Shown piece after piece: positions 305 to 51,252 of a DNA stretch of 64,000 nt. The DNA comes from a bacterium (lineage in GTDB: Bacteria > Desulfobacterota > Binatia > HRBIN30 > CADEER01). The notes under the pieces were generated by a model. It made no database searches. It was not told where the DNA came from and was given only the letters and a program-made list of their open reading frames with translations. The DNA lies in the NCBI GenBank assembly GCA_019637795.1, contig JAHBUY010000002.1, positions 969,606 to 1,033,605 of the forward strand, given 5' to 3'. Position numbers and translations under genes: made by a program. Each line of letters starts with the position of its first letter. Position 1 is the stretch's first letter.

Positions 305-3265
305 CTAAAGCTTTTCCAAATCGTCGCGCAGGGCCCTGGCCGTCCGCACGTCGAGAAGCTCGAACCCCTCGCCGAACCAGCCGTAGATGCCGGACAGGAG
401 ATCGCGCGCCGCGATCCGACGGCCCTGCTCGCGCCACAGGCGCGCCAGTCCGGTGGCGGCTTTCAGCTCGAGCCACTTGGCCTTCTGCTCGCGCGCGACG
501 TCGATCGCCCCGTTGAACCCCCGCTCCGCGTCGCCGTTTCGCCCCAGGGCGCGATCGATCTCCGCGCCCAGCCGCAGGACCTCGGGCGCATGCCAGTGCC
601 CGCCGCAGCGGGCGATGTAGGCCGCCGCCTCGTCGATCGCCGTTCGCGCCTCGTCGAGACGGCCGGTGAGCAGAAGGGCATTGGCCAGCATGGCCTTCCA
701 CACCGAACCCGCATCGGGAGCGATCCCAGGATCCTTCCGCAGCCGCCGGACGGCCAATGCGCCCTCGCCGTGGGCGAGGAGCTCCGTTGCCTCGGCCATC
801 GTCGCCAGATTCCGCCAGTTCCGGTGCCCGGTGAGATGCGCCAGCGCGCGGATCTTCGCCGCTCCCTCGGCCGCCACACCGCCCTCGAATGTCAGCCCGG
901 CGACCCGTTGCTGACGGGCGAGCACATAGAACTCCGTATAGGGGTGCCCCAGCGCTTCGGAACGGGCGCACAGGTCGCGGAAGGCGCGCAACGCCTGATC
1001 GGGAAAACCGAGAGCCAGGCGGGCGAACGCGATGTCGGCGGCGGCCGCGAGGTGGAACGCCACCGGCGCGCCCGGCACCAGCGGGGGAAGCTGGAGGGCC
1101 GGCGTCAGATTCTCGACCGCCGACTCGTAGCGACCGCGGGCCAGCTCGACATAGCCTTCCAGGTAGCGCACCACCGGTTCGGCGCCGCGCAGAGCCGGCT
1201 CGGCGTCGAGGCGCCGCATCTGCTCGCGCACGGCATCGGCGGCGCGATCCGGGCGGCCGCAGCCCACGTGGAACGCGACCAGCCCCCCGAGCGCCTGCAT
1301 CGCTTCGAAGGTCGCGACGTCGCCGCGCGCCAGCTCGCCGACGCGGCTGGCGAGCAGCGGCAGCTCGGCGGCGCCAATCCCTTCGCTCTCCATCAGCGGC
1401 CCGATCAGCGCGCCGCGGAGACGCAGCTCGATCTCGTGGCGAGGCGAACCGCTGGGGGCACCCTCGAGGAGCGCGAGGCCCCGGCGTAGCCAGCCCATCG
1501 CCTCCGCGGTGGCGTAGCGGCGCAGGGTCATCCGCGCCGCTTCGTGACACTGGCGGGCGGCGCGCAGGACGTCGCCGCCGCGCTCGAAGTGCAGCGCGAG
1601 CTGCGAGGCGATCTCGGACGCGCGGGCGCCGTACCCGGCTTCCAGCCGCTCCGCGATGCGCAGGTGGAGGGTCGCCCGGCGCGCCGGGGGCACGCGCGCC
1701 GCGAGGACCTGTCGGTAGAGCACGTGACGAAAGGCGAACGACGCAGCGCTGCTCCCGTCGGGCCATGGGCTCGATCGCGCCGCCTCGATGAACTGTCCCG
1801 AGCGCGCCAGACGCGTGCAGAGATCTTCGATCTCCGCCGTGTCCCCGCCCAGCGCGGCGGCGGTCGTTTGCGAGGAGAACACCATGCCCACCAGGCTCGA
1901 GACCTCGAGCGTCTCGCGGGCCCCCGCCGGCAGGCGCTCGAAGCGGTGCTCGATCATGTCGCGCACCGCCGGGGGGACGGCGTCGCGGATCGTGTCGGGC
2001 GAGACCGCGCAGGTCCAGGACCCGTTCTCCTCGCGCAGCCACCCCTCCTGAACGAAGTCGTCCACCGCGGCCTGCAGGAACAACGGATTGCCGGTCGTCT
2101 GCGCCTGCAGCACCTCACACACGTCGGCCGCGAACGCGCCGCGCGGGAAGCGCCACCGCAGGTAGTCGCCGACGGCCTTCGCGTCGAGTCCCTCCAGGGG
2201 GATTTCGAGACATTGCCGCTTCGCCGCCAGCTCGCGCGTCAGCGCGACGATCGGGTGTTGGGCGAGGATGGCGTCGACCGAGCGGTACGTCGCCACCAGC
2301 AGCAACCGCGCCGGCGCGCGCCGCTGCGCCAGGGCGGCGAGCAGGGCGACCGTGGCGGGATCGGACCAGTGCATGTCCTCGAACACGAGGACGAACGGTC
2401 GCTCGCGTGCCAGCACGGCGAGCGCGCTCGACAGCTCGCGGATCATGCGCTCGCTCGTCGACCCGGCCAGGGTCCGCAGGAGATCGGCGCGTTCGTCGCC
2501 GCTCGCCACCCCGGGCAGTTGCACCAGCCAGGCCGGCGCGTGCGATCGCAGCACCCGCTGCACCTCGGCGTCGCCGCACAGGCTCTCCATGGCTTCGAGC
2601 ACCGGCATGTACGGCTCGCCCGGTCCGTACTGCTCGAGGCACTGCCCGCGGCCGAGGAGCGGCGCCGCCGAGGAGCCGCCGCGCGGATCGCGAGCCTCCA
2701 TTGCCGCCGCGCGGCCGTCGACGCCGGCGCAGAACGCGTCGACCAGCGCGGTCTTGCCGATCCCCGGCTCGCCGGTCACGAAGACGAGCTGCCGCCGGCC
2801 CGCCTCGGCCAGCGCGTATGCTCGGCGCAGGGCGGCGACGGCCTCCGAGCGGCCGAAGACGGTTCGAGCTGCCGCGTCATCGAGATCGTGCGAGGACTCG
2901 GGCTCCGGTGTCTCGCCGACGATCGCGATCTGTCCGATCCACCGGTAGCCGCGCCGGTGAGCGGTCTCGATGCAGCGCGGCCGCCTGGCGTCGTCGCCCA
3001 GCGCCTCGCGGAGCTGCGCGACCGCGACGGTCAACACCGCCTCCGAGACGTGGGTGTCGGGCCACACGGCGTCGAGCAGCGCCTGCTTGGTGACGAGCTG
3101 ACCGGCGCAACGGCAGAGGCAGCGCAGCACCTCGTACGCCTTGGGCTTCAGGTCGATCCGCCGCGCTCCGCGCCACAGACACTGACTGCCCTCATCGAGG
3201 CGATACTCGGCCTCCCCCACGAGCTTGGTCATGCCGGACAGGGCCTCGTTGTCGCAGATTCCCAC
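305..3265 (-). CDS. large transcriptional regulator with an OmpR/PhoB-type winged-helix DNA-binding domain, an AAA+ P-loop ATPase and a TPR-like C-terminus (AfsR/EmbR-like architecture)
   Basis: The N-terminus (CLWRGARRIDLKPKAYEVLRCLCRCAGQLVTKQALLDAVWPD) matches the trans_reg_C winged helix. A Walker A motif (GEPGIGKT) and Walker B-like motif (FVLVFEDMHW) are present. The long alpha-helical repeat C-terminus is Leu/Ala-rich. An alternative start lies at Met12. Confidence 0.75.
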   Translation of the reverse strand: MGICDNEALSGMTKLVGEAEYRLDEGSQCLWRGARRIDLKPKAYEVLRCLCRCAGQLVTKQALLDAVWPDTHVSEAVLTVAVAQLREALGDDARRPRCIETAHRRGYRWIGQIAIVGETPEPESSHDLDDAAARTVFGRSEAVAALRRAYALAEAGRRQLVFVTGEPGIGKTALVDAFCAGVDGRAAAMEARDPRGGSSAAPLLGRGQCLEQYGPGEPYMPVLEAMESLCGDAEVQRVLRSHAPAWLVQLPGVASGDERADLLRTLAGSTSERMIRELSSALAVLARERPFVLVFEDMHWSDPATVALLAALAQRRAPARLLLVATYRSVDAILAQHPIVALTRELAAKRQCLEIPLEGLDAKAVGDYLRWRFPRGAFAADVCEVLQAQTTGNPLFLQAAVDDFVQEGWLREENGSWTCAVSPDTIRDAVPPAVRDMIEHRFERLPAGARETLEVSSLVGMVFSSQTTAAALGGDTAEIEDLCTRLARSGQFIEAARSSPWPDGSSAASFAFRHVLYRQVLAARVPPARRATLHLRIAERLEAGYGARASEIASQLALHFERGGDVLRAARQCHEAARMTLRRYATAEAMGWLRRGLALLEGAPSGSPRHEIELRLRGALIGPLMESEGIGAAELPLLASRVGELARGDVATFEAMQALGGLVAFHVGCGRPDRAADAVREQMRRLDAEPALRGAEPVVRYLEGYVELARGRYESAVENLTPALQLPPLVPGAPVAFHLAAAADIAFARLALGFPDQALRAFRDLCARSEALGHPYTEFYVLARQQRVAGLTFEGGVAAEGAAKIRALAHLTGHRNWRNLATMAEATELLAHGEGALAVRRLRKDPGIAPDAGSVWKAMLANALLLTGRLDEARTAIDEAAAYIARCGGHWHAPEVLRLGAEIDRALGRNGDAERGFNGAIDVAREQKAKWLELKAATGLARLWREQGRRIAARDLLSGIYGWFGEGFELLDVRTARALRDDLEKL

Positions 3266-6167: not shown

Positions 6168-6848
6168 TCAGCGGCGGCGCAGGATGAGCCCGACGACGAC
6201 GGCGATGATGCGCACGGTGTCGCCCCACGGCCGATAGTGGCTGATCCGCTCGGCGGCCGGCGGATAGTAGACGTCGACCGGCACCGAGACGATCTCCACC
6301 CCGGCGCGCGCGGCCCGGATCAGCACCTCGGTCTCGAAGGCGAACCGCCCGGCGGTGGCGCCGAGCCGCAGGGTGTCGGCCAGCGGGTAGACGCGAAAGC
6401 CGGACTGCGTGTCCGGCAGCGCCTGGCCGCAGGCGATCTCGACCCAGCGGTTGGCGAAGCGGTTGCCGAAGAGCTTGATCGGCGTCACCTCCTGGTCGCC
6501 GATGCGGCGGGCGCCGACGATCAACGCCCGCGGCGCCGCCGCCGACGCCGCCAGCAGGGCCGGAATCTCGCGCCCCAGGTGCTGGCCGTCGCCGTCCATG
6601 GTCAGCGCGTGGGTGACCCCCTCGCCCGCCAGGCGCGCGAAGCCGGCGCGCAACGCCTCGCCCTTGCCGCGGTTCACGGGCTGGCAGAGCACGGCCGCCC
6701 CGGCGGCCTCGGCCCGCGCCGCCGTGTCGTCGCGCGACCCGTCGTCGACCACCAGCACCCGATCGACGTGGCGCCGCGCGCCGCCGACCACGTCGGCGAT
6801 CGTCGCCGCGCAGTCGTAGGCCGGAATCAGCACCGCGCAGCGTCGCAT
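6168..6848 (-). CDS. family 2 glycosyltransferase (polyprenyl-phosphate sugar transferase-like)
   Basis: GT2 signature (VLIPAYDCAATIADVV...VLVVDDGSRDDT...MDGDGQH...QSGFRVYP). The ATG at 6846-6848 was verified in the sequence. Confidence 0.8.
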   Translation of the reverse strand: MRRCAVLIPAYDCAATIADVVGGARRHVDRVLVVDDGSRDDTAARAEAAGAAVLCQPVNRGKGEALRAGFARLAGEGVTHALTMDGDGQHLGREIPALLAASAAAPRALIVGARRIGDQEVTPIKLFGNRFANRWVEIACGQALPDTQSGFRVYPLADTLRLGATAGRFAFETEVLIRAARAGVEIVSVPVDVYYPPAAERISHYRPWGDTVRIIAVVVGLILRRR

Positions 6849-6996
6849 CGCCCGAACTTTTCACACGCGGCGGCGGAGCGACAGAGGCGGCCCGGCGCGG
6901 CCTCGCCACCGCCGTTGCGCCGTCTCTCCCCGTGGATCCTCGTTGCGCGGCGAGGCTGAATTGAGGGCGCCGCGCGGGCTATGCTAGCGCCACGCG

Positions 6997-7977
6997 ATGA
7001 CCGCCCCCTCCGCCCCCGTCGCCGCGCGCCTGCGCGCGGCGCTGCGCTTCGACGGCATCTGGTGGCGGAAGCTCGCCTGGCTGGGCTGCGTCTACGGCCC
7101 CGAATGGTGGAAGCAGGGCTCGCCGCCGCTGATCGCGGCGCTCATCTACGCCGGCGTCGGCCGCAACCGCCGCGGCGCCGTCACAAACCTGCAGCGCGTT
7201 CTCGGCGACCCCGATCCGCGGCGGGCGCGCCAGATGGCGCTGCGCATGTACGCCGAGTTCGCCCGCTGCATGACCGAGACGCTGGAGCACTTCGGACCCC
7301 GCCCGCAACCGGTGCGGATCGACGAGCCGACCCGCGACGTCGTCGGCGAGGCCCTGGCCGAGGGCCGCGGCCTGGTGCTGGTGACCGGCCACGTCGGCAA
7401 CTGGGACGTCGCCGCCCGCACCCTCGAGCAGTACGACCGCCCGTTCAACCTGGTGATGGCGCACGAGCGCAACGCCACCACCAGCGCCTACGCGCGCGCC
7501 ATCCGCGAGCGCGCCGGCATGCGGGTGATCTACTCCGACACCTCGGTGTTCTCGTCGCTCAACATGATCCGCGCCCTGCGCGACAACGAGATCGTCGCCA
7601 TCCAGCTCGACCGCACCCTCGGCGTCGGCACCACCCGCATGGTCGAGTTCTTCGGCGCCCCGGCGCCGTTCCCGACCGGGCCGTTCGTTCTCGCCCGCCT
7701 CGCCGGCGCGCCGCTGCTGCCGGTCTTCTTCCCGCGCCTCGGCACCCGCCACTACGCCATCCGCCTCGGCACCCGCCTGACCCTGCCGCGCGACGCCGGC
7801 GACGCGCCGGCGCTGGCGCGCGCCATGCGCGCCGTCGCCGCCGAGCTCGAGGACGTCATCCGCGAGTTCCCGCACCAGTGGTTCCAGTTCGCGCCCTTCT
7901 GGCCGGAGGACGCCGCCCCGAGCGCGCGCCAGCGACCGGCCGACCGCGACGCGCGAGTGCGCGGCCGGCGCGACTAG
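6997..7977 (+). CDS. lipid A biosynthesis (Kdo2-lipid IVA) lauroyl/myristoyl-type acyltransferase family protein (LpxL/HtrB-like)
   Basis: Lip_A_acyltrans features (WWRKLAWLGCVYGPEWW...LVTGHVGNWD...). It is divergent from the GT2 gene. Confidence 0.7.
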   Translation: MTAPSAPVAARLRAALRFDGIWWRKLAWLGCVYGPEWWKQGSPPLIAALIYAGVGRNRRGAVTNLQRVLGDPDPRRARQMALRMYAEFARCMTETLEHFGPRPQPVRIDEPTRDVVGEALAEGRGLVLVTGHVGNWDVAARTLEQYDRPFNLVMAHERNATTSAYARAIRERAGMRVIYSDTSVFSSLNMIRALRDNEIVAIQLDRTLGVGTTRMVEFFGAPAPFPTGPFVLARLAGAPLLPVFFPRLGTRHYAIRLGTRLTLPRDAGDAPALARAMRAVAAELEDVIREFPHQWFQFAPFWPEDAAPSARQRPADRDARVRGRRD

Positions 7978-8014
7978 TCCAGGAGTCGACCAGGATTGCC
8001 GGGAGCGCGTGATG

Positions 8015-8743
8015 CTAGGCCGCCAGCTCGGCGGCGATCTGCGCCCGCACCGTCTCGCGCAGGCGGTCGCGGTCCTCGTACGTCAGGCCGGCGGTGGCGA
8101 TCGGCGGCAGGATCACCAGCTCGGCCGAACCGGGGAGAATCGAGAGATACTGCCCCTTGGGCATGATGCGGGTCGTCCCCTTGCAGACCACGGGGACGAT
8201 GGGGACGCCGAGTTGGATGGCGGCGACGAAGGCGCCCTTGCGGAACGGCAGCAGCTCGCCGTCGGCGCTGCGCGTCCCTTCCGGGAAGATCACCAGCGAG
8301 CCGCCGTCGAGCGTCACCTTCTGCAGCCGCTCGATGGAGGCCAGGGGATCGTCGCGATCGATGGGAATCATCCCCATGGTGCGGAGCACGGCGCCGAGGA
8401 TCGGCTCGGCGAACATCTCGCGCTTGGCGGCGAACCGGGTCACCCCTGGCAGGAGGCCGAGCAGGGCGGCGATGTCGAAGTGGCTCTGGTGGTTGGGTGC
8501 GAAGATGTACGGCCCGGGGCCGAGCTGTTCGCGCCCGCGCACCCGGATGCGCACGCCGCACACCCGCATGAGGTTGCGCGCCTGCAGCTTGGCGAAGCGC
8601 CACGCCAGCGGCCGGCTGATCTGGTACAGGCCGATGGCCACCAGTCCGGACGAGAACAGCATGGCGCGGAAGAGCACGCGGTTGAGGGCGACGCGCAACC
8701 GCGTCGGCTCGGCGGCGCTGACGGCAACGGCATCGGCGGGCAT
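8015..8743 (-). CDS. plsC: 1-acyl-sn-glycerol-3-phosphate acyltransferase (PlsC family)
   Basis: HxxxxD motif (NHQSHFDI) and FPEGTRS motif. The Met (MPADAVAVS) at 8743 was verified. The 30 residues annotated upstream of this Met mirror the neighbouring gene because of a perfect palindrome and are not considered coding. Confidence 0.8.
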   Translation of the reverse strand: MPADAVAVSAAEPTRLRVALNRVLFRAMLFSSGLVAIGLYQISRPLAWRFAKLQARNLMRVCGVRIRVRGREQLGPGPYIFAPNHQSHFDIAALLGLLPGVTRFAAKREMFAEPILGAVLRTMGMIPIDRDDPLASIERLQKVTLDGGSLVIFPEGTRSADGELLPFRKGAFVAAIQLGVPIVPVVCKGTTRIMPKGQYLSILPGSAELVILPPIATAGLTYEDRDRLRETVRAQIAAELAA

Positions 8744-8746
8744 GCG

Positions 8747-8822
8747 GGTAGCAGTATCCAGCGCCCTCCGGCGGGGCAAGATACGCGGCTTGCCCCGCCG
8801 GAGGGCGCTGGATACTGCTACC
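8747..8822. promoter_or_regulatory. perfect 76-bp palindrome (34-bp arms, 8-bp loop) exactly filling the gap between divergent start codons
   Basis: The arm GGTAGCAGTATCCAGCGCCCTCCGGCGGGGCAAG (8747-8780) and the arm 8789-8822 are exact reverse complements. The loop is ATACGCGG. Three nt separate each end from the plsC ATG (8743) and the rSAM GTG (8826). Symmetric GATACT hexamers (-10-like) lie about 10 bp from each start. Confidence 0.6.
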
Positions 8823-8825
8823 GGC

Positions 8826-10178
8826 GTGCGCATCCTCCTCGTATCGCCGACGCACTACAACGCCGACGGCACGTTGCATAAGACGACCCGCTACTGGACC
8901 AGCGGCCTGACGCTGGCGACGCTCAAGGCGCTCACCCCGCCGGGACACGACGTGCGCATGGTCGACGAGCTGTTCCACGACGTCGACCTCGATTTCGACG
9001 GCGACGTCGTCGGCATCACCGCCATGGGACCGCAGATCCGCCGCGCCTACGAGCTCGCCGACCACTTCCGCGGCCGCGGCCGCAAGGTGGTGCTCGGCGG
9101 CACCTGGGTGACGCTCACCGCCGAGGCGTCGCTGCGCCACGCCGACGCCGTGGTCGCCGGCGAGGCCGAATCCGTCTGGCCGCAGGTCCTCGAGGACCTC
9201 GCCGCCGGCCGCAGCCGCGGCATCTACCGCGCCGCCCAGTGGCACGACCTGCGCGGTCTGCCGCGCGTCGATTACACCAGCCTGCCGCTGCTCAAGTACG
9301 ACGCCTTCAAGCGCAGTTGGCTCTACCGCATGTACTTCCACTGGCCGATCGTCTTCTCGCGCGGCTGTCCGCACCCCTGCGAGTACTGCGCCGTGCAGAC
9401 GTTCTACGAGCGCGGCTTCCGCACCCGCCCGGTGGACGAGGTGATCGCCGACCTGGAGGCGATCAAGGCGCTCGGCGCCAACCGCATCCTGTTCCTCGAC
9501 GACAACCCGATCGGCAATCCGACCGCGGCGAAGGAGCTGTTCCGCGCCATGGTTCCGCTGAAGCTGAAGTGGGCCAGCCAGTGCACGATCAACATCGCCC
9601 GCGATCCCGAGCTGCTCGACCTCGCGGCGCGCAGCGGCTGCGTCAGCCTGTCGATCGGCCTCGAGAGCATCAACGAGGACAGCCTCGAGACGATCGGCAA
9701 ACGCTTCAATCAGCCGCGCCGCTTCGACCGCGACCTGGCGGCGATCCGCGCCAAGGGCATCCAGGTGATCGGCCTGCTGATGGTCGGCCTCGACGGCGAC
9801 ACCCTCGATACCTTCCAGCGCTCGCTCGCGTTCCTGATCGACAACAAGGTGTCGTTCCTCAAGCTCTTCACGCCCTGCCCGTACCCCGGCACCAAGTACT
9901 ACGACGACATGCTGGCCGCGGACCGGATCACCATCCAGGACTGGGGCCGCTACGACTACGGCAGCCCGATCATCAAGCCGGCGCAGATGACCGCCGAGGA
10001 GATGATGAGCGGCTTCAAGACCGTCTACGAAGGCTTCTACTCGTCGCGCGCCATCGCCAAGCGCCTCTTCCCCCCGCCCGCCGGCAGCTATCTCGAGACC
10101 CTCGCCTACCTGGTCGCCAACCTGAAGGTGAACCGCTACCTGCGCTCGCACGAGAACGCCTGGGCGACGATCTCGTGA
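8826..10178 (+). CDS. B12-binding (class B) radical SAM enzyme
   Basis: N-terminal cobalamin-binding-like domain (LLVSPTHYN...GITAMGPQ), a CxxxCxxC cluster (CPHPCEYC) and a radical SAM core. A GTG start at 8826 was chosen because the upstream part of the 694-aa ORF is a mirror image of plsC created by the palindrome. Confidence 0.7.
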   Translation: MRILLVSPTHYNADGTLHKTTRYWTSGLTLATLKALTPPGHDVRMVDELFHDVDLDFDGDVVGITAMGPQIRRAYELADHFRGRGRKVVLGGTWVTLTAEASLRHADAVVAGEAESVWPQVLEDLAAGRSRGIYRAAQWHDLRGLPRVDYTSLPLLKYDAFKRSWLYRMYFHWPIVFSRGCPHPCEYCAVQTFYERGFRTRPVDEVIADLEAIKALGANRILFLDDNPIGNPTAAKELFRAMVPLKLKWASQCTINIARDPELLDLAARSGCVSLSIGLESINEDSLETIGKRFNQPRRFDRDLAAIRAKGIQVIGLLMVGLDGDTLDTFQRSLAFLIDNKVSFLKLFTPCPYPGTKYYDDMLAADRITIQDWGRYDYGSPIIKPAQMTAEEMMSGFKTVYEGFYSSRAIAKRLFPPPAGSYLETLAYLVANLKVNRYLRSHENAWATIS

Positions 10179-10208
10179 GAACGGCGCGACGCTCTTGGCT
10201 GACGCGAC

Positions 10209-10372
10209 AAAAGACTTTCACCACGGAGGCACGGAGACACGGAGAGTACTGAGCTCGAAGCCCGCCCAGCGTTCATCCCAACGTTCATTGGAAATGGAGT
10301 GAGAAGAGGCCCCGCGCCTTCGCTGTGGCACCGAGCCCTCCGTGTCTCCGTGCCTCCGTGGTGAGGAGTTTT
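10209..10372. mobile_element. MITE-like inverted-repeat element, copy 1
   Basis: Terminal inverted repeats TTCACCACGGAGGCACGGAGACACGGAG (10217-10244) and its reverse complement (10338-10364) flank a roughly 95-bp core. The same arms recur at 48.8 kb and at the window end. Sits in a convergent intergenic region. Confidence 0.65.
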
Positions 10373-10406
10373 CTGTCTCATCGGCCTGACGGCGGAACAG
10401 CCTCGC

Positions 10407-11726
10407 TCAGAGCTCGCGTAACGTCCCGCGCACCCGGAAGAGCCCGCCGTCGGCGGTGGCGCCGAAACGTCCGCGCGCCGTCGCGTCGTCGAAGCGTCGG
10501 TGGCGCGCCGCCAGCTCGGCGGCGAGCCCGGCGTCGCCGCCGAGCAGGTCGGCGGTGCCGGACATCAGGCGCACGAAGGCGGTGCGCGCCTCGAGCGGTC
10601 CCTCGGGGTTGAGCAGCTTGCGCGCCGTCCAGAAGTACGAGTCGGGATCGGTGTGGTGGTCGTAGAAGAAGTAGAGGAACTGGCGGTAGCGCTCGAAGGC
10701 GGCGCGGTAGCGCCGGTCGTAGTCGGCGAGGGCGTCGGCCGGCGACACGTTCCCGGCCAGCAGGCGCTCGACGGCGCGCGCCGCCAGGTAGCCAGCCATC
10801 GACGCCAGGTGCACGCCCGTGGAGAACACCGGATCGATGAAGCAGGCGGCGTCGCCGGCGAGCAGGTAGCCGGGGCCGTGGAAGGCGCGGCTGTCGTAGG
10901 AGTAATCGCGGATCACCCGCACCGGCGCGACGCGCCGGGCGGCGCGCGTCCGCGCCGCCACCGGCGCGCAGGCGGCGACCAGGCGCTCGTAGAGCGGCGT
11001 CGCGTCGCCGCCCGCCTCGCCGGCGAAACGGGTGGCGTCGACCACCGCGCCGACGCTGGTGGTGCCGTCGTGCAGCGGGATGAACCAGAACCAGCCATCG
11101 GCGAAGGCGGCGGAGAGGATGTTGCCGGCGGTGTCGCCGGCCAGGGGCTCGGCGCCGGTGAAGTAGGAGAAGACCGCCAGGTTCTTGAAGAAGGGATCGA
11201 AGCGACGCTGCCCGTCGCGCCGCCCGAGCAGCGCCTGCTGGCCGCTGGCGTCGATCACCCACGGCGCCCGCGCCTCGACCGCCGCGCCGCGCTCGTCGCG
11301 GGCGGCGACCCGGTTGCACGCGCCGTCGTAGGTCACCGTCTCGACCCGATGCGCCTCGCGGACGTCGACTCCGAGCGCCGCCGCGTGGCGTAGCAGGAGG
11401 TGGTCGAACTCCGCCCGCACGACGTGGAAGGCGTGCGGCCGGCCGCCGGGATCGTCGCGGAAGTAGAAGCTCCACGGTTCGGCGCGCGCCCCCCACACGA
11501 AGGTGCCGCCCGGTTTGCGCACGAACCCGGCCGCCTCGATCGCCGGCAGCACCCCCAGCGCCTCCAGCACCGGCATGGTCGCCGACAGCAGCGACTCGCC
11601 GATGTGGTAGCGCGGAAAGCGCTCGCGCTCGAACAGCAGCACCCGCGCCCCCGCCTGGGCGAGAAACCCGGCCGCGACGCTGCCCGCCGGGCCGCCGCCG
11701 ATGACGATGGCGTCAGCGTCGAGCAT
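10407..11726 (-). CDS. flavin-dependent halogenase (tryptophan-halogenase family)
   Basis: GxGxxG FAD fold (IVIGGGPAGSVAAGFLA) plus the diagnostic WxWxIP motif (GWFWFIPL). The Met (MLDADAIV) at 11726 was verified. The 52 codons upstream are Arg/Gly-rich junk. Confidence 0.8.
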   Translation of the reverse strand: MLDADAIVIGGGPAGSVAAGFLAQAGARVLLFERERFPRYHIGESLLSATMPVLEALGVLPAIEAAGFVRKPGGTFVWGARAEPWSFYFRDDPGGRPHAFHVVRAEFDHLLLRHAAALGVDVREAHRVETVTYDGACNRVAARDERGAAVEARAPWVIDASGQQALLGRRDGQRRFDPFFKNLAVFSYFTGAEPLAGDTAGNILSAAFADGWFWFIPLHDGTTSVGAVVDATRFAGEAGGDATPLYERLVAACAPVAARTRAARRVAPVRVIRDYSYDSRAFHGPGYLLAGDAACFIDPVFSTGVHLASMAGYLAARAVERLLAGNVSPADALADYDRRYRAAFERYRQFLYFFYDHHTDPDSYFWTARKLLNPEGPLEARTAFVRLMSGTADLLGGDAGLAAELAARHRRFDDATARGRFGATADGGLFRVRGTLREL

Positions 11727-11740
11727 GCCGTGCCTTCCGT

Positions 11741-12376
11741 TCAGCGCTTGCGCTTCTTCGCCGGCGCTGGCGTCGGGGCCGCCGCGACCGCCTGCTGCAC
11801 CGGTTCGTTGTTGCTGGGCGCGCCGCCGATGATCGCCGACACCTGACCGTCCGCGCCGAACTTGACCTCGAAGGTCACCCACCGGTTGCGCCAGTAGACC
11901 CAGGTGTCGGCGCTGGTCGATGGCGTGCGGTGGGTCGGCGGATAGCCGAGCGACATCAGCACCTGCTCGCGCGTCATGCCGCGCTCGACGCGGCCGTCAC
12001 GGATGGCCGCCTGCACCGACGGCGAGAACGTCGCGAAGCGCGCGTGCGGGTCGATCTCGACCAGGACCTTGGCGAAGAACTGCTGAGAGGTCTCCTGCTC
12101 CGTCCCGTACGCCTGGGTGAGCGTGACGTTGACGTCGGCGGCGCGAAAGCTCACCGACCTGGCGGTCATGCCCGTGACCGTCGCGGGACTCCCGAACGGC
12201 AGCAGGGCGCCAACCTGATAATTGGCGTCGACCACGTCGGCCGGATTTTCATAGTGGATATTGCAGCACGTGTAGAGCTGCCGCGCCTGCCATTGCTGCA
12301 GAACGCCCGGTGCCACCTTCGCCGCGCAGCCGGCAAGCACGAGCGCCAGCGCCGCGATCGTTCGTCGAAATCGCAT
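11741..12376 (-). CDS. lipoprotein of unknown function
   Basis: Lipobox signal MRFRRTIAALALVLAGCAAK. The Met at 12376 was verified. Ends 15 nt upstream of the halogenase start on the same strand, so likely co-transcribed. Confidence 0.55.
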   Translation of the reverse strand: MRFRRTIAALALVLAGCAAKVAPGVLQQWQARQLYTCCNIHYENPADVVDANYQVGALLPFGSPATVTGMTARSVSFRAADVNVTLTQAYGTEQETSQQFFAKVLVEIDPHARFATFSPSVQAAIRDGRVERGMTREQVLMSLGYPPTHRTPSTSADTWVYWRNRWVTFEVKFGADGQVSAIIGGAPSNNEPVQQAVAAAPTPAPAKKRKR

Positions 12377-12498
12377 GCAGCCTCCTGTCCCCGCCGCCGC
12401 TGCAGTCGGCGCGGGGCGGCTCGCATCTAGACCGCGGCCGGAGCACTTCGCAACCGCCGACTCCCGGCGCGCCGCCAGGCGCATCGCCCGCGACCCCC

Positions 12499-12912
12499 TC
12501 AGCACCCGATGGCGGCGAGGTGTCCCTCCTCGGCGTAGGCGAGCAGACCGGCGTCGCGGGTGACCAGGCGGTAGCCGCAGGCGCGCGCGGTGGCGGCGAG
12601 GATGCGATCCACCGGATCGCGCGGCGGACAGCCGGGCAGGAAGGAGGAGGCGATCAGCGCGGCGGGATCGGTGGCCGCCAGGGCGACGCCGGGCACGGCC
12701 AGCAATCGCCGGAACCACGCTTCCGGGCTGATCGAGATCGTCAGCCGGCTGCGCGCCACCAGCAGGCCGATCTCCCAGGCGCTCATCGGCGACACGAACA
12801 CCGGGCGCCCCGCCGCCGCGGCCGCGTCGAGCGCCGCCGCCGCGGCGCTCGCGATCGGCTGGTCCTCGGCGATCCAGATGGCCGCGCAGGTATCGAGCAG
12901 CAACGGCATCAT
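12499..12912 (-). CDS. vapC: PIN-domain ribonuclease toxin (VapC-like)
   Basis: PIN signature (MPLLLDTCAAIWIAED...ATDPA...LVTRD). A tandem ATGATG start overlaps the stop of the upstream small gene. Confidence 0.7.
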   Translation of the reverse strand: MMPLLLDTCAAIWIAEDQPIASAAAAALDAAAAAGRPVFVSPMSAWEIGLLVARSRLTISISPEAWFRRLLAVPGVALAATDPAALIASSFLPGCPPRDPVDRILAATARACGYRLVTRDAGLLAYAEEGHLAAIGC

Positions 12913-13313
12913 TCGGCGCGGTCGCCCCACTCCGGATCCGCCGGCGCGGCGAGATCGGTGCCGGGCGCGATGCCGAGGAGACCCTTCAGGGCGCCCCGCA
13001 AGGGGTGGCGCCCCCGCGCCACGTAGGCCGGCGCCGCCTCGGCCACCGCGGGCGGCGCCGCCGGCGCCGGCTCGGCAACGCGGCGGAACACCAGCTTCCG
13101 GCCGCTCATGTCGACATTCGCGCTCTCGTAGCCAGCCCGCTTCCAGGCACGGGTGATGACACTGCTCTGCTCGTTGTTGCTCCACCACGCCCGCTGGCCG
13201 GCACTCGGGGGAAGGGGGGCACCGATGATTCGCTCGATGGCCTCGAACGTCATCGGGACCTCCTTCTCCGTCCGACCCTTCAGGTAGTCCTCCAGCGGTC
13301 CGTACTTGGACAT
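12909..13313 (-). CDS. putative antitoxin partner of VapC
   Basis: Small 134-aa ORF immediately upstream, with its stop overlapping the toxin start (ATGATGA). The Ala/Pro-rich acidic C-terminus ending ...DPEWGD is typical of VapB-type tails. Confidence 0.5.
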   Translation of the reverse strand: MSKYGPLEDYLKGRTEKEVPMTFEAIERIIGAPLPPSAGQRAWWSNNEQSSVITRAWKRAGYESANVDMSGRKLVFRRVAEPAPAAPPAVAEAAPAYVARGRHPLRGALKGLLGIAPGTDLAAPADPEWGDRAE

Positions 13314-13431
13314 GACAACTCCCTCTCGAGACTGCTGATAACAGTTTACCTACATTAAGACAACACTGTTGTTCCGCGGTCGGATCACCGCGTCAGCATC
13401 GAGTGGCACGCGAGGCCGCCGCCGATCCGCG

Positions 13432-14862
13432 CTATGCCGCGCGGCGCAGCTTGGCGCGCATGTAGACCGCGGCCGAGCTGGCCATGCGGCCGATGAAGCG
13501 CGGCTCGCTCGCCATCAGGCGGGCCATGCCCCAGAGCACGTCCGGGCGCGAGTAGAAGGCGCGGTAGCAGCGGGTGAAGGCCGCTTCCAACTCGGCCTCG
13601 CTGAGGCCGCGGGGGATGAACACGAACTGCATCGCGTTCATGCGCTGCCAGTCCTCGCTGAAGTCGCCGTGCTGGTGGATGGTCGGGTAGGCGGGGGTGC
13701 CCGGATAGGGCGTGAACTTGGTGATCTGGCAGAAGTCGAGCTCGGCGACGCGCAGGAAGGCTTCGGTCTCGCGCAGGCTGTCGCTGGTCTCGGTGGGGTG
13801 GCCGAGCATGAGGTAGCCCTTGGTGCGGATGCCCGCCTGGCGGGTCAGGCGCAGCGTCTCGCGCATGCGCGGGATGCGCACCTCGCGTTTCACGGTGTCG
13901 AGCACGCGCTGCGAGCCGGATTCGATGCCGTAGGCGATCTGCCAGCAACCGGCGCGCCGCATCAGTTGCAGGGTCGGCAGGTCGAGCAGGTTGGGATGGC
14001 TGTTGCAGCTCCAGGTGAGGTCGAGCTGGGCGTCGATCAGCGCCTGGCAGAGATCGACGACGCGCTGTTTGCGCACCGTGAACAGGTCGTCGAGGAAGAG
14101 GATGTGGCGGGCGCCGCGCTCGGCGAGCTCGCGGCACAGCGCCACGACGCGCGCGACGCCGTGCAGCCGGCCCTTGCGGCCGGAGGTCGAGCGATCGCAG
14201 AAGACGCAGGTGAACGGGCAGCCGCGCGAGGTGATGAGGGTGGCCACCGGCGTCCGCGGGTAGCCGAACAGCGTCGGCTGGAAGCGGTGGGGGAAGTCCG
14301 GCAGCAGGTCCCAGGCGGGCGTCGGCAGCGCGTCGAGATCGTCGATGTACGGGGCGCGCGGGTTGGCAACGACCATTGCGCCGCGGCGGAAGGCGACCCC
14401 CGGCAGGTCGTCGACCGCCGCGCCCTGTTCGAGCCGCTCGAGCAGGGCGAACAGCGCCACCTCGCCCTCGCCGGCGATGCCGTAGTCGAAGCTCGGGAAG
14501 GCGGTCAGCGTCCGCTCGGGCACGGCGCTGACGTGGGCGCCGCCGACGATGGTGACGACGGCGGGCCGCGCCCGCTGCACGCGCTCGGCGATGCGCGCCG
14601 CGTTGGTGACCGAGATCGTCGTCGCCGACAGTCCGAGATAGTCGGGGCGCAGCGCCTCGATGCGGCGGGCGACCTCCTCGACCGGCGTCCCCTGTCCCTT
14701 GGCGTCGATCAGGTGCACGCGATAGCCGCGCTGGCGCGCCACCGCCGCGAGCATCAGCATCCCCATGCCGGGGATCGTCTCCTCGCTCTGGCGCAGGCGG
14801 TCGCGGCGGCGGTCCCAGAAGAGATACGGCGGTTCGCAGAGGACCAGCGTTCGCCCAGCCAT
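13432..14862 (-). CDS. B12-binding (class B) radical SAM enzyme
   Basis: Cobalamin-binding-like N-terminal domain, a CPFTCVFC (CxxxCxxC) cluster and a radical SAM core (LITSRGCPFTCVFCD). 476 aa. Confidence 0.8.
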   Translation of the reverse strand: MAGRTLVLCEPPYLFWDRRRDRLRQSEETIPGMGMLMLAAVARQRGYRVHLIDAKGQGTPVEEVARRIEALRPDYLGLSATTISVTNAARIAERVQRARPAVVTIVGGAHVSAVPERTLTAFPSFDYGIAGEGEVALFALLERLEQGAAVDDLPGVAFRRGAMVVANPRAPYIDDLDALPTPAWDLLPDFPHRFQPTLFGYPRTPVATLITSRGCPFTCVFCDRSTSGRKGRLHGVARVVALCRELAERGARHILFLDDLFTVRKQRVVDLCQALIDAQLDLTWSCNSHPNLLDLPTLQLMRRAGCWQIAYGIESGSQRVLDTVKREVRIPRMRETLRLTRQAGIRTKGYLMLGHPTETSDSLRETEAFLRVAELDFCQITKFTPYPGTPAYPTIHQHGDFSEDWQRMNAMQFVFIPRGLSEAELEAAFTRCYRAFYSRPDVLWGMARLMASEPRFIGRMASSAAVYMRAKLRRAA

Positions 14863-14940
14863 GGGTCAGCGCTTACCCGCACGCCGCCGGCGCGGCAAGA
14901 TGAATCACCGCCGCGCGCCGGCCATCGGCCGCGGACCGCT

Positions 14941-15495
14941 TCACCACACGAAGGGAATCAGACGCTTCACCTGGCGGCAGTACGCGGCGTACGCGGCGCC
15001 GAGTTGCGCGTGCAGGCGCCGCTCCTCCTGCGCGGCGCGCACCGCCAGCGCGGCGAACAGCGCCAGCCAGGTCAGCGCCAGCGGCGGCCGCGCCGCGACG
15101 ATCGCCGGCGCCGCGGCGGCCATCAGGTAGGCGAGGTAGAGCGGATTGCGCACCAGGCCGAAGGGGCCGTCGCGGCGCAGCCCTGACGGCGCCTCGTCGG
15201 GCAGCGGCCGGTGCCGCAGCGGCCCGATCTGCAGCCGGGCGCGCCACCAGAAGATCTGCGCCGCGGCGTAGAGCGCGATGCCGAGGCCGCCGCGCAGGCG
15301 CGGCACCTGCGGCATGACGCTCACCGCGGCGCAGGCGAGGGTGACGTGGACGGCGACCAGCAGCGGCGCGGCGCGCACCCAGAGGCGCTCGCGCGCCGAG
15401 TAGTGGGGCAGCGCCGCGGTCATCGCCTCGGCGCGGAAGGCGAAGAAGGGGATCCAGCCGACGCCGAAGATGGCCCCGAGCGCGATCGGGATCAT
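14941..15495 (-). CDS. isoprenylcysteine carboxyl methyltransferase (ICMT)/phospholipid methyltransferase family membrane protein
   Basis: C-terminal ICMT/PEMT signature (GPFGLVRNPLYLAYL...EERRLHAQLGAAYAAYCRQVKRLIP). The Met (MIPIALG) at 15495 was verified. Its ATGA overlaps the upstream gene. Confidence 0.7.
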   Translation of the reverse strand: MIPIALGAIFGVGWIPFFAFRAEAMTAALPHYSARERLWVRAAPLLVAVHVTLACAAVSVMPQVPRLRGGLGIALYAAAQIFWWRARLQIGPLRHRPLPDEAPSGLRRDGPFGLVRNPLYLAYLMAAAAPAIVAARPPLALTWLALFAALAVRAAQEERRLHAQLGAAYAAYCRQVKRLIPFVW

Positions 15496-16490
15496 GGGCT
15501 CGTCGCCCGGCGCGCCGTCGGCAGGCGCGCCGGCGAGACGCCGAGCAGCGACAGTGCCAGCAGTCCGATCAGGACGAACAGCGTCTCGTGCAGACGCAGG
15601 ATGACGCCGACCACGAAGCCGAGATCGGCGCGCCCGGTGGTGGCGCCGACCGCGAGCACCTGTGTCGCCTCCAGCGCGCCCAGGGCCGCCGGCGTCGGCA
15701 CCGCGCGCGCCATGCCGCCACCGAGCAGCACCATCAGCAGCACCGGCAGCTCGAGGTCGAGGCCGAAGGCGCCGAGCAGCGCCCGGTACTGCAGCACCAC
15801 GACCAGCTCGATCAGCGCCGTGAGCGCGATGCCGGCGACGAAGGTGGCGCGGTGGGCGGCGAAGAACCCCAGCAGGTGGTCCTCGACGCGGCGCAACCCG
15901 TCCAGCCAACCCGCGTGGCGCCCGACCCATCGGCGGGCGCGCGACCCGTACAACGGCGCCAGTGGCCGGCCGCCGCGCCCCAGCCGCACGACCAACGCCG
16001 CCAGCAGGACCAGCAGCGCGGCGACCCCGGCGCCGACGAGCCAGGTGGCGCGCGCCGACGTGCCGGCCATGGCGGCCGAGAACACGGCCAGGTAGGCGGC
16101 CACCGCGAGCAGATTGCCGATGACCTCGAGCAGCCGGTCGATCGCCACCCCCGCGCTCGCCGACGCGAGCGGGGTCGCGCCGGCGCGCGCCAGCACGGCG
16201 CGCAGCGGATCGCCGCCCACCCGCGCCAACGGCAGCAGCGAGGCGACGCCGTCGCCGGCCAGGCGCGCCGCGGCGATCCGCCCCACGCCGACCGGCGCCC
16301 CAACCGCCGCCGCCATCACCCGCCAGCGCCCGGCCTGCAGGCCGAGCACCACCGCCGACCACGCCGCATACTCGACCAGGCCGCGCGGCGAGGCGTGGCG
16401 CAACGCCGCCAGCGCGCCGCCGAGGCCGAACCACCATGCCAGCGCCGCCAGCAGCGCGGCGCCGAGCAGCAGCGGGACGCCGCCCTTCAC
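15492..16490 (-). CDS. UPF0104 / lysylphosphatidylglycerol-synthase-TM-like (flippase-like) membrane protein
   Basis: Multi-TM protein (KGGVPLLLGAALLAALAWWF...). Inferred GTG start at 16490 overlapping the deacetylase stop (GTGA). Further upstream the ORF overlaps the deacetylase in another frame. Confidence 0.6.
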   Translation of the reverse strand: MKGGVPLLLGAALLAALAWWFGLGGALAALRHASPRGLVEYAAWSAVVLGLQAGRWRVMAAAVGAPVGVGRIAAARLAGDGVASLLPLARVGGDPLRAVLARAGATPLASASAGVAIDRLLEVIGNLLAVAAYLAVFSAAMAGTSARATWLVGAGVAALLVLLAALVVRLGRGGRPLAPLYGSRARRWVGRHAGWLDGLRRVEDHLLGFFAAHRATFVAGIALTALIELVVVLQYRALLGAFGLDLELPVLLMVLLGGGMARAVPTPAALGALEATQVLAVGATTGRADLGFVVGVILRLHETLFVLIGLLALSLLGVSPARLPTARRATSP

Positions 16491-17302
16491 TGCCACGGCG
16501 CCGCCTCCCCTGGCGGCGCGGCGACCTGCGGAAAGAGGTCGCGGATGGCGCCGAAGGCGCGCGCGCGCAACAGGCGCTCGAGGCGCGGCGCCAGGCGCGC
16601 GCGGCCGGCGCGCAGCAGCCAGCGCGCCGCGCCCGGCGCGCTCGGCGAATCGGGATCGAGCTCCCACGGATGGAGGTAGAAGACGCCGCTGCCGACGTCG
16701 CGCTCGAAGCCGCGCAGGCCGTGCGCCAGCAGGCGCGGCGGCAGCAGTCGCAGCCCCCAGCCGCTGGCCGCCGGCAGGTGCCAGAAGCGGCAGAGCCGCA
16801 GCACCGCCACCGGCACCTCCCAGAGACCGTTGTGGTGGCGGTACGGCTGCCGCGGCGAGACCAGCTCGAGCCCCGGCGGCCGGTCGTTCGGCAGGACGCT
16901 CGAGTCGTAGGAGTAGCCCGCCGCGGCGAGTTGCTCGATCGGCCAGCGCACGCCGGCGCGGATGGCGAAGTAGGGCGCGCGGTAGCCGCGCACCGGTCGG
17001 CCGCTGACGTCCTCGAGCAGCCGCCGGGCGCGCTCGACGTCGGCGCGGAACTCGCGCCAGAGTTGGTTCGCCAGGTGATGGTGGGCGTGGCCGTGACTGG
17101 CGAGCTCGTGGCCGGCGTCGGCGATGCGCCGCACCAGCGCCGGATGCCGCTCGGCGACGGCGCCGAGCACGAAGAAGGTCGCCCGCGCCCCGGCGGCCGC
17201 GAACTGCTCGAGGAGCGCGTCGGTGTTACGCTCGACCCGGCCGCCGCCGGCGGCGGCCGCGAGGCCGCCGTCGTGAAACCAGTCCTCGACGTCGACCGAC
17301 AT
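16487..17302 (-). CDS. polysaccharide deacetylase (NodB-homology/CE4) family protein
   Basis: Met (MSVDVEDWFH) at 17302 was verified. NodB-type motifs (DVEDWF, HGHAHH). Confidence 0.75.
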   Translation of the reverse strand: MSVDVEDWFHDGGLAAAAGGGRVERNTDALLEQFAAAGARATFFVLGAVAERHPALVRRIADAGHELASHGHAHHHLANQLWREFRADVERARRLLEDVSGRPVRGYRAPYFAIRAGVRWPIEQLAAAGYSYDSSVLPNDRPPGLELVSPRQPYRHHNGLWEVPVAVLRLCRFWHLPAASGWGLRLLPPRLLAHGLRGFERDVGSGVFYLHPWELDPDSPSAPGAARWLLRAGRARLAPRLERLLRARAFGAIRDLFPQVAAPPGEAAPWQ

Positions 17303-17408
17303 GGCGTGGCGCGGCGCTGTCACGGTGCGCGGAACGTAGCCCGCCGGCGGCGCCAGTTCCACGACGGCGCGGTCCCGGCGGGCGCCGCCGCGGCGCGGGC
17401 GCGGGACG

Positions 17409-18602
17409 TTGACGCTTCGCCGCCCGCGGGCTAGCGGAGGCTCGGTGGAGATCTTCACGCTCGATGCCGACGACGTCCAGGCGCGCCTGGCCGCCGCAAC
17501 GCGGGTCGCTGACGCAGCCCGCGACGACGTGCTGGCGCGCGCCCGCGCCGCCCAGCCGCTCGAGGTCGACGACCTCGCGGTGCTGTGGACGGCGCCCTTC
17601 GACGCGGAGACGCTGTACGCCGCCGCGTGCGCGGCGCGCGCCCTTCGCCCGCGTTCGCTCGAGACCTTCGCGCCCCTCTACCTCACCAACACCTGCGACG
17701 CCGAATGCCGGATGTGCGGCATGCGCCGCGACAACGCGGCCCTGCGCCGCGAGACGGTCGACCTGCCGGCGGTCGAGGCCCAGCTCGAGATCCTGCGCCG
17801 GCGCGGCATGCACGGAGTCGCGCTGCTGACCGGCGAGTATCGCGCCGGCGGGCGCGACTGGGCGCTGGCGCACGTCAACCAGGCGCTGCGGCGCGCGACG
17901 ACGCTCGGCTTCCGCCACGTCCTGATCAACATCGGCGCCATCGACGCACACGAGTACGACGCGCTGCTCGCCGGCCTCGCCCGCCACGCCGGCGACGACG
18001 GCGGCCCGAAGCTGACGATGTGCACCTTCCAGGAGACCTACTCGCGGCCGCTGTACCGCGCCTTCATGGGCGACAGCGCGGACAACCCGCGCGCCGATTT
18101 CGAGCGCCGATTGGCGAACTTCGATCGCGCCCGCGCCGCCGGCATGCGGGTCGCCAACCCCGGCATCCTGGTCGGTCTCAATCCCGACCTCGGCTTCGAG
18201 CTGCTGGCGCTCGCGCTGCACACCCGGCACCTGCAGCGCCACGGGATGGAGGTCTACCTGTCGGTGCCGCGCCTGCGGCAGATCGCCGGCCGCGCCAACC
18301 AGCGCGGCGCCGGCGACGCGGCCTTCGTCCGCCTCGTCTCGATCCTGTCGCTCGGCCTGCCGGAGGCGAAGATCGTCCTCACGACGCGCGAGTCGGCGGA
18401 GATCCAGCGCCGCCTGGTGCCGCTGGTCGGCGTGCTCTCCGCCGGCTCGGCCGCGGTCGCGCCCTACACCAGCTCGGGCGCCCGTTTCCCGCTCGAGGCG
18501 AGCCAGTTCGAGGTCGTCGACCAGCGCCCGTTCGAAGCGATCCTCGGCGAGCACCTCCGTCCGGGCGTGCGCATCGAGAACTTCGACCCGCCGGCCGCGT
18601 AG
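17409..18602 (+). CDS. ThiH/HydG-family (tyrosine-lyase type) radical SAM enzyme
   Basis: FAPLYLTNTCDAECRMCGM matches the ThiH/HydG F-x-PLYLSN-C-xxx-C-xx-CGF motif. The downstream ALLTGEY matches ThiH LLVTGEH. The antisense 442-aa ORF is Arg/Gly-rich junk. Confidence 0.7.
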   Translation: MTLRRPRASGGSVEIFTLDADDVQARLAAATRVADAARDDVLARARAAQPLEVDDLAVLWTAPFDAETLYAAACAARALRPRSLETFAPLYLTNTCDAECRMCGMRRDNAALRRETVDLPAVEAQLEILRRRGMHGVALLTGEYRAGGRDWALAHVNQALRRATTLGFRHVLINIGAIDAHEYDALLAGLARHAGDDGGPKLTMCTFQETYSRPLYRAFMGDSADNPRADFERRLANFDRARAAGMRVANPGILVGLNPDLGFELLALALHTRHLQRHGMEVYLSVPRLRQIAGRANQRGAGDAAFVRLVSILSLGLPEAKIVLTTRESAEIQRRLVPLVGVLSAGSAAVAPYTSSGARFPLEASQFEVVDQRPFEAILGEHLRPGVRIENFDPPAA

Positions 18603-18605
18603 CGG

Positions 18606-48810: not shown

Positions 48811-48975
48811 AGAAATAAGTTCACCACGGAGGCACGGAGACACGGAGGGTACCGCGTCGGGCTGGCTGGTTGGTGGGAATCCGTACGGTCATTGCTGATG
48901 GGGTTGGGATCCCGGCCCCGTGCCCCTCATTCTCCGGGCTGTTCCGCGTCTCCGTGCCTCCGTGGTGAGAGTGCT
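48811..48975. mobile_element. MITE-like inverted-repeat element, copy 2
   Basis: Same 28-bp arms TTCACCACGGAGGCACGGAGACACGGAG (48820-48847) and near-perfect reverse complement (48943-48968, one mismatch). The flanking GACAAAAGCAC motif is shared with copy 1. The core differs. Confidence 0.65.
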
Positions 48976-51166: not shown

Positions 51167-51252
51167 CTTTCACCGCAGAGACGCAGAGGCGCGGAGATGC
51201 GGAGCTGCGCCGGAGGCTGCCCGTCTCTGCGCCTCTGCGGTGAAGAACCGTG

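Follow-up and report, generated by a model that had tools for sequence, protein, structure and literature searches.

A long palindrome in a 64-kb stretch of Binatia DNA (the window, to which all positions below refer) probably consists of two back-to-back promoters, the core promoter of a B12-binding radical SAM (rSAM) gene having been copied in inverted orientation over that of a divergent acyltransferase (plsC) gene, most likely by a template switch. We place the probability of this reading, which is drawn from the comparison of DNA sequences, at roughly 70%. The comparison covered orthologous loci from metagenomes and species-representative genomes (>100 loci, designated by L numbers), among which the closest relatives were found through members of 90% protein clusters and a PlsC search.

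The palindrome and its flanking genes

The two arms of the palindrome (8747-8780 and 8789-8822) are exact reverse complements at 34 of 34 nt around an 8-nt loop, ATACGCGG (8781-8788), and the window from 8740 to 8830 reads CATGCG-GGTAGCAGTATCCAGCGCCCTCCGGCGGGGCAAG-ATACGCGG-CTTGCCCCGCCGGAGGGCGCTGGATACTGCTACC-GGCGTG. This reproduces the coordinates and complementarity of the perfect 76-bp palindrome (34-bp arms, 8-bp loop) that a first-pass annotation of this DNA had described as bridging two starts. Its edges lie 3 nt from each of the divergent start codons (ATG 8743 on the minus strand, GTG 8826), and imperfect complementarity extends to 8740-8829 (41-nt arms, 95%, by repeat finder), with both start codons inside. 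Folded as single-stranded DNA, this region reaches -58.6 kcal/mol (z = -12.6), with 0 of 200 shuffles as low. The palindrome is genuine and far above chance expectation. Such palindromes had been called rare and unstable: the former is borne out, since no other perfect hairpin (loop <=30 nt) in 866 kb of DNA from related Binatia is as long (the runners-up have arms of 27, 21 and 18 nt), and the latter seems too strong a word for arms of 34 bp around an 8-nt spacer, given the work on SbcCD and palindromes in E. coli.

Within the 64-kb window, a search that tolerated up to 3 mismatches returned the arm only at its two sites, and 0 of 100 shuffled controls gave a match to it. An exact 22-mer of the arm had no match in 185,579 GTDB species-representative genomes. 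Likewise, no second assembly with the palindrome was found by exact look-ups of the 450-aa and 478-aa rSAM forms or by the arm 22-mer, nor did a homolog search with the over-extended 272-aa PlsC reading frame, which includes the palindrome-encoded peptide, return another assembly carrying it.

A hairpin of this kind could in principle act at the RNA level, as a terminator, attenuator or small RNA. Hairpin-like Rfam matches do span 8735-8833, but all are to miRNA precursor models and score far under the gathering threshold (e.g., 52 vs. 268 bits), and nothing in the whole 64-kb window reached that threshold. Moreover, a scan of 8400-9200 found neither a T-tract nor a terminator-like site, and since the two genes diverge, the element would lie upstream of both predicted transcription starts. 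An RNA-level role, scarcely credible on these grounds, was rejected, the terminator features being absent and the Rfam matches sub-threshold noise.

On the minus strand, the palindrome is flanked by a gene for a PlsC/LPLAT-type acyltransferase of 242 aa (8015-8743, ATG at 8743-8741; PF01553, E = 6e-33). Its score falls slightly under the TIGR00530 cutoff, so that the equivalog level is not reached (NCBIfam), and "plsC" is used here as a family-level label only. On the plus strand lies a gene for a B12-binding radical SAM protein of 450 aa (8826-10178, GTG start; PF04055 and PF02310), for which NCBIfam has no curated equivalog and whose homologs, where named, belong to Candidatus Binatia. The nearest PlsC homologs measure 242-246 aa, as compared to 242 aa from ATG 8743, and the first 15 coding nucleotides at the plsC start (ATGCCCGCCGATGCC) are identical in L147 and L148. 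The rSAM orthologs are nearly all 450 aa long with V or M kept at the start position, and over-extended rSAM calls in relatives keep V at the VRILL position. Together, these ortholog lengths, start residues and first codons place the true starts at 8743 and 8826.

In the list of open reading frames, both genes can be extended through the palindrome, to 272 instead of 242 aa (PlsC) and to 478 instead of 450 aa (rSAM). The mirror-image N-terminal extensions that result had been taken for an artefact of translation, rightly so, as the conserved true starts exclude them. Gene callers that read through such a palindrome would put false mirror-image N-terminal extensions on both proteins, which calls for caution with start codons. 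The same region also holds spurious reading frames of up to 725 aa that are antisense to or ahead of the real genes (7974-10151 on the minus strand; 8094-10178 and 8009-8881 on the plus strand), and that are so long because stop codons are scarce at 72% GC.

The palindrome sits within a conserved lipid/pigment-type gene cluster (6168-20927), also seen in L003, L147 and L150. Its members include genes for a GT2 glycosyltransferase, an LpxL-like and a PlsC-like acyltransferase, a CmlS-like FAD halogenase/monooxygenase, an LPG_synthase_TM protein, a polysaccharide deacetylase and a ketosynthase, together with two B12-radical-SAM genes; in L003, an aromatic ammonia-lyase adjoins the cluster.

Promoter boxes and their spacing across orthologous loci

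Each arm carries a putative promoter of its own. In the right arm (8789-8822, plus strand), which is homologous to the rSAM-side promoters of relatives and would be the native rSAM core promoter, a -35 box TTGCCC (8790-8795) is followed by a 17-nt spacer, a -10 box TACTGC (8813-8818) and 7 nt to the GTG. In the left arm (8747-8780, minus strand), which would be an inverted copy of that promoter now serving plsC and is complementary to 8789-8822 at 34 of 34 nt, the same boxes lie at 8779-8774 and 8756-8751, with a 17-nt spacer and 7 nt to the ATG. The 8-nt centre (8781-8788) between the two -35 boxes is asymmetric; a distance of 56 bp separates the -10 boxes (8756 to 8813), and one of 82 bp the start codons.

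The positions of the symmetric hexamers pointed out earlier were confirmed (GATACT at 8811-8816 and 8753-8758, TTGCCC at 8790-8795 and 8774-8779), as was the lack of a Shine-Dalgarno motif within 20 nt of either start. The proposal that these hexamers are promoter boxes holds insofar as boxes are conserved in position in dozens of orthologs, but not in its -10 register: the conserved register is TAnnnn (here TACTGC, with a 17-nt spacer and 7 nt to the start) rather than GATACT with a 15-nt spacer. A strict consensus scan of 8400-9200 returned no site matching the canonical TTGACA/TATAAT, and TACTGC lacks the canonical T at position 6; such a scan is too stringent for a lineage of 72% GC, and the comparison of orthologs takes its place.

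PlsC and rSAM genes are widely found in this divergent orientation, separated by 47-319 bp and often by 81-110 bp. Of 102 distinct rSAM-side regions, 54 contained the motif TTGNNN-N16-18-TANNNN-N5-9-start, compared to 0.6% at arbitrary ATG/GTG codons of the same loci, and on the plsC side the same TTGNNN-TANNNN pattern, ending 5-12 nt before the start, was present in 39 of 71, i.e., in about half of the orthologs rather than in all. Counts that do not presuppose the pattern gave a similar picture. Upstream of rSAM, a TA starting at -16 to -11 was found in 75 of 101 regions (5 of 101 in a control window) and a TTG starting at -42 to -35 in 84 (control 5 of 101), while the plsC side had TA in 47 and TTG in 48 of 70 regions (control windows 2 of 70). 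The modal positions among the 101 rSAM-side orthologs are -13 for TA and -36 for TTG, with which the right arm of the window agrees, and the distance from the -10 box to the start peaks at 7 nt in orthologs, the value of both window arms. Boxes stay adjacent to the start codon at every spacer length from 47 to 319 bp, including spacers of 200-300 bp. A Shine-Dalgarno-like 4-mer at -18 to -4 was seen in only 11 of 102 regions on the rSAM side and in 10 of 71 on the plsC side.

With box positions conserved and no room for a Shine-Dalgarno sequence, the reading of the spacer as a symmetric divergent promoter for leaderless mRNAs, first put forward from the window's sequence, holds up, and the conservation of boxes and start spacing in orthologs adds support to it. 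The comparison thereby supports a conserved back-to-back pair of sigma-70-type promoters, predicted to give leaderless or nearly leaderless mRNAs that start on the initiation codon or no more than one or two nucleotides away from it; promoter activity and leaderless starts in this uncultured lineage are what we infer from these sequences. If so, uncultured Binatota would widely use start-codon-anchored promoters, implying leaderless mRNAs. The Binatota genome paper (PMC8262859) makes no mention of leaderless mRNAs, radical SAM enzymes, flexirubin or aryl polyenes.

Six further genes of the window, against 0.9 expected, have a start-anchored promoter motif (starts at 6997 and 17445 on the plus strand, and at 14862, 33175, 47404 and 53880 on the minus strand), with TTGNNN-N17-18-TA(G/A/T)NNN-N6-7 before an ATG or GTG that is mostly the first possible start of its reading frame. 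This suggests that start-anchored, leaderless-type promoters may be common in this Binatia genome. As for the rSAM start codon itself, 41 of 102 distinct orthologs have GTG and 61 have ATG; GTG is commoner in closer relatives (>= ~78% identity) and is unusually stable for a presumed leaderless start.

Closest relatives and the origin of the symmetry

When orthologous intergenic regions were compared, a check proposed in the first-pass annotation, the promoter layout proved to be kept but the palindrome was found in 0 of 70 other spacers. In the whole set of 71 distinct spacers, perfect hairpin arms reach 34 nt in the window but only 13 nt in L001 and <=10 nt in every other. Similarly, the plsC-side and rSAM-side promoters of the window are identical at 37 of 41 positions, whereas those of a single locus in relatives have a median of 17 of 41; promoters taken from different loci, as a control, have a median of 16 and a maximum of 24 of 41. 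Hence a conserved dyad was not detected in relatives, the two promoters of a locus being no more alike than promoters of unrelated loci. The palindrome is, as judged from this sample of spacers, a lineage-specific derived change, and the two-promoter layout is apparently ancestral in the Binatia lineage.

Close relatives allow this change to be followed at the level of single boxes. The rSAM proteins of L147 and L148 are 94% identical to that of the window, the PlsC of L149 is 93% identical, and L150-L154 have a PlsC 92% identical and an rSAM protein identical at 411 of 450 positions, with an 84-bp spacer (82 bp in the window) that is itself identical in five independent samples (sequencing runs). 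At the nucleotide level, the flanking coding DNA is 91-92% (rSAM) and 87% (plsC) identical to that of close relatives. In these relatives, the plsC-side promoter is well conserved (TTGCCG/C-ACCCGCG...GCGGGA-TAGCGT/TACGGT; 29 of 37 positions among L147, L149 and L150), and the one on the rSAM side is also conserved but distinct in sequence (TTGCCC/TTGCTC-...GCGCTGGG-TACTGC).

In a matrix of five relatives, agreement of the two window arms with the rSAM-side promoters is 25-28 of 37 positions, as compared to a background-level 17-21 of 37 with the plsC-side promoters. Taken separately, the right arm matches the rSAM-side promoters of L148, L150, L149 and L147 at 26-28 of 37, with an identical TACTGC, and the plsC-side arm matches the relatives' own plsC-side promoters at only 18-20 of 37. 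The motif TACTGCTACC is common to the rSAM side of L149 and to the window arms. Closer to the centre, GCAAGAT (8777-8783) is common to the window and to the plsC-side -35 region of L147 and L148, and the window centre ATACGCGG aligns with GACGCGGTCGTC in L150. At the outer end, the ancestral plsC flank (cgc on the minus strand, 8744-8746) would mark the limit of the copied tract: perfect symmetry stops exactly where cgcATG, common to L147 and L148, resumes. A gapped alignment with L150 gave a modest contrast between the outer left arm (15 of 27) and the outer right arm (19 of 27), so that the argument for direction rests mainly on the five-relative matrix.

That both arms are of the rSAM type, that the flanks are intact and that the boundary falls at cgcATG together point to the rSAM core promoter having been copied inverted over the plsC core promoter, and the direction shown by this comparison is from the rSAM side to the plsC side. 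The opposite direction had been considered in view of a CTTGCCC on the plsC side of L005; it was dropped, as TTGCCC also occurs on the rSAM side in L085, L148 and L150, and the matrix of five relatives is clearly opposite.

How such a copy could arise is suggested by the L150 spacer, which reads GGCAAGACG-cggt-CGTCTTGCC: here the -35 boxes pair without mismatch over 9 bp as an inverted repeat with a 4-nt loop and imperfect flanking arms, lying between distinct plsC-type and rSAM-type promoters. L150 thus shows a quasipalindrome, in what would be a pre-event-like state. The -35 boxes of L149 also form an inverted repeat (GCAAGACGCG...CGCGTCTTGC). Use of the nascent strand as template is known to turn quasipalindromes into perfect inverted repeats (PMC7202029). 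In the proposed event, a stalled nascent strand would form a hairpin at the short inverted repeat that the pair of -35 boxes provides: the CTTGCCC of the plsC -35 box, just made on the nascent minus strand, would anneal to the GGGCAAG lying only a few nucleotides back, and the strand would then copy itself outward over ~27-34 nt, starting with the -35 box and taking in the spacer, -10 box and discriminator of rSAM, before a return to the normal template at cgcATG, 3 nt ahead of the plsC ATG. Such an event would reproduce the window sequence exactly, leave the 8-nt centre asymmetric, and place both genes under identical promoters, without the symmetry itself having to be functional. As the window centre differs from that of L150, the seed was presumably the 7-bp pair GGGCAAG/CTTGCCC. 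In the derived sequence, the 7 nt just beyond each arm agree at 5 of 7 positions (xGCxTGC), which may represent microhomology at the return point. It is the template-switch route that we infer for the copying, and conversion of the RecA type would be a less likely route with homologies this short. The absence of any difference over 2 x 34 nt could reflect recency, though selection for symmetry would have the same result.

Because polymerases also switch templates in vitro, a similar fold-back could have been produced during amplification, sequencing or assembly, in which case the palindrome would be a chimera and the true spacer L150-like. The source is evidently a metagenome-derived Binatia genome, and the lack of an independent assembly with the palindrome (see above) fits this explanation as well. 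It would, however, take two precise switches 34 nt apart, with collinear plsC sequence resuming exactly 3 nt before the ATG, and a de Bruijn assembler would need reads with both new junctions (loop/left arm and left arm/plsC flank), while the genes and flanks are intact and collinear with relatives. We consider an artefact very unlikely.

Alternatively, the symmetry itself could be functional, with both genes under the joint control of a dimeric regulator, for which it would be the operator, or of a cruciform driven by supercoiling. The perfect symmetry spans both core promoters, the predicted hairpin is very stable, divergent transcription generates negative supercoiling between promoters, and a winged-helix/AAA regulator gene lies ~5.5 kb away (305-3265). 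Yet relatives lack the dyad, 34-bp arms far exceed any usual half-site, OmpR-type domains usually bind direct repeats, and the conserved neighbourhood of L001 and L147 holds no recognizable regulator; in addition, the copying event would fully account for the symmetry, with the pre-event allele seen in L150. A functional dyad is unlikely in view of these points, and the single dyad-binding regulator proposed at first finds no support in relatives without the palindrome, whose two promoters are alike at control level only and next to which a one-off copying explains the symmetry. The candidate nearby (305-3265, minus strand) encodes a 986-aa protein with an OmpR-type winged-helix domain followed by an AAA_16 ATPase (AfsR/SARP-like architecture); it is conceivable as a regulator of the cluster, and is absent from the conserved neighbourhood of relatives.

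Beyond its origin by copying, the symmetry may also be non-neutral in other ways. A 34-bp cruciform extruded by the negative supercoiling that two outward-directed promoters generate might hide both sets of -35 and -10 boxes, and so act as a self-limiting supercoil-sensing switch, or a dimeric factor might bind the new dyad, or the -35/-35 repeat might be a preferred landing site for CACGGAG-type elements (see below), making the spacer a hotspot of promoter remodelling. We regard these ideas, taken together, as quite unlikely.

Finally, a mobile or repetitive palindromic element of the REP or MITE type could have inserted between the genes: CACGGAG-type hairpin elements are present in this genome and its relatives, four of which have one in this very spacer. 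The palindrome, however, has no similarity to the CACGGAG family, and its arm is single-copy in the searches described above (64-kb window with <=3 mismatches; 185,579 genomes for the 22-mer). Nothing foreign has been inserted, the right arm being the ortholog of the relatives' native rSAM promoter, and the 82-bp spacer matches that of the element-free L150 (84 bp), with no insertion relative to this empty site. An inserted element, highly improbable, was rejected on account of the single-copy arm and the native promoter in the right arm.

The CACGGAG-type elements are themselves of some interest. In the window, two MITE-like copies (10218-10364 and 48821-48968) have terminal inverted repeats of CACGGAG heptads (TCACCACGGAGGCACGGAGACACGGAG), which are 27 nt and perfect in the former and 26 nt and 96% in the latter, ~93-96 nt apart, around internal sequences that look unrelated by eye. 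One copy of this type lies directly 3' of the rSAM gene, and a CGCAGAG variant forms a hairpin with 28-nt arms at 51169-51244. No Rfam family matched the CACGGAG-type elements. In 4 of the 6 closest lineages, a hairpin element of the CACGGAGG/CACAGAGG type, differing in structure, lies between the -35 boxes of the plsC-rSAM spacer (locus coordinates 337-384 in L148, 3968-4023 in L001, 3841-3965 in L147 and 18-139 in L149); in L149 it occupies the centre of the -35 inverted repeat, and the window and L150 are without it. This suggests that the -35/-35 inverted repeat may be an insertion hotspot for this hairpin family. A further lineage, represented by two assemblies with spacers of 157 and 211 bp (L002, at 2355-2410, and L005), has three tandem 18-nt units (gcgccgcgggggcccggc) just upstream of the rSAM -35 box.

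Comparison with known systems

The locus described here is best explained by two phenomena already known, the divergent promoter pair of leaderless type and the quasipalindrome template switch, of which it would be a new instance, and not a new biological system. Back-to-back divergent promoters for leaderless mRNAs occur in Actinobacteria and Deinococcus. As in that class, the -10 box lies 6-8 nt from an ATG or GTG, a Shine-Dalgarno sequence is lacking and the two genes have separate sets of -35 and -10 boxes; mirror-identical promoters, by contrast, are not a feature of the class but are present here, and the Binatia case is known from sequence alone. The bidirectional promoters of Warman et al. 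(bioRxiv 10.1101/2020.01.31.928960) likewise tie divergent transcription to DNA symmetry, but their divergent start sites are 7-25 bp apart (mostly 18) with overlapping -10 elements, whereas here ~83 bp lie between the predicted starts and no -35 or -10 box is shared, which places the locus outside that class. To REP/MITE-like repeats of the CACGGAG type, the palindrome is similar as a long intergenic inverted repeat in a spacer that hosts such elements in relatives, and it differs in being single-copy, unrelated in sequence and, as it seems, derived from native promoter DNA.

The mechanism proposed has closer counterparts. Short-range template switches recognized by genome comparison (PMC7954356; bioRxiv 10.1101/2021.11.26.470150) are similar in that a cluster of substitutions is explained by one nearby inverted copy; those surveys concern human and great-ape genomes, while the present case is a bacterial divergent promoter pair. 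As in quasipalindrome template-switch mutations (Ripley model; E. coli thyA hotspot, lacZ QP reporters; PMC7202029), an imperfect repeat would have been made perfect by rewriting one arm, over a short tract with collinear flanks and with a short perfect stem as seed, and the differences from relatives do cluster in the plsC-side arm, the other arm and the flanks being orthologous. Laboratory cases usually involve one to a few nucleotides within a gene, as compared to ~27-34 nt and a whole core promoter here, and the present event belongs to a natural lineage and is reconstructed rather than observed, with the pre-event allele surviving in relatives. More generally, the -35 boxes of divergent promoters inevitably form a small inverted repeat, which can seed the growth of a palindrome and equalise both promoters. 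This spacer would be an unusually clean natural case of a template switch that replaced a whole bacterial core promoter, with the pre-event allele still visible in sister lineages.
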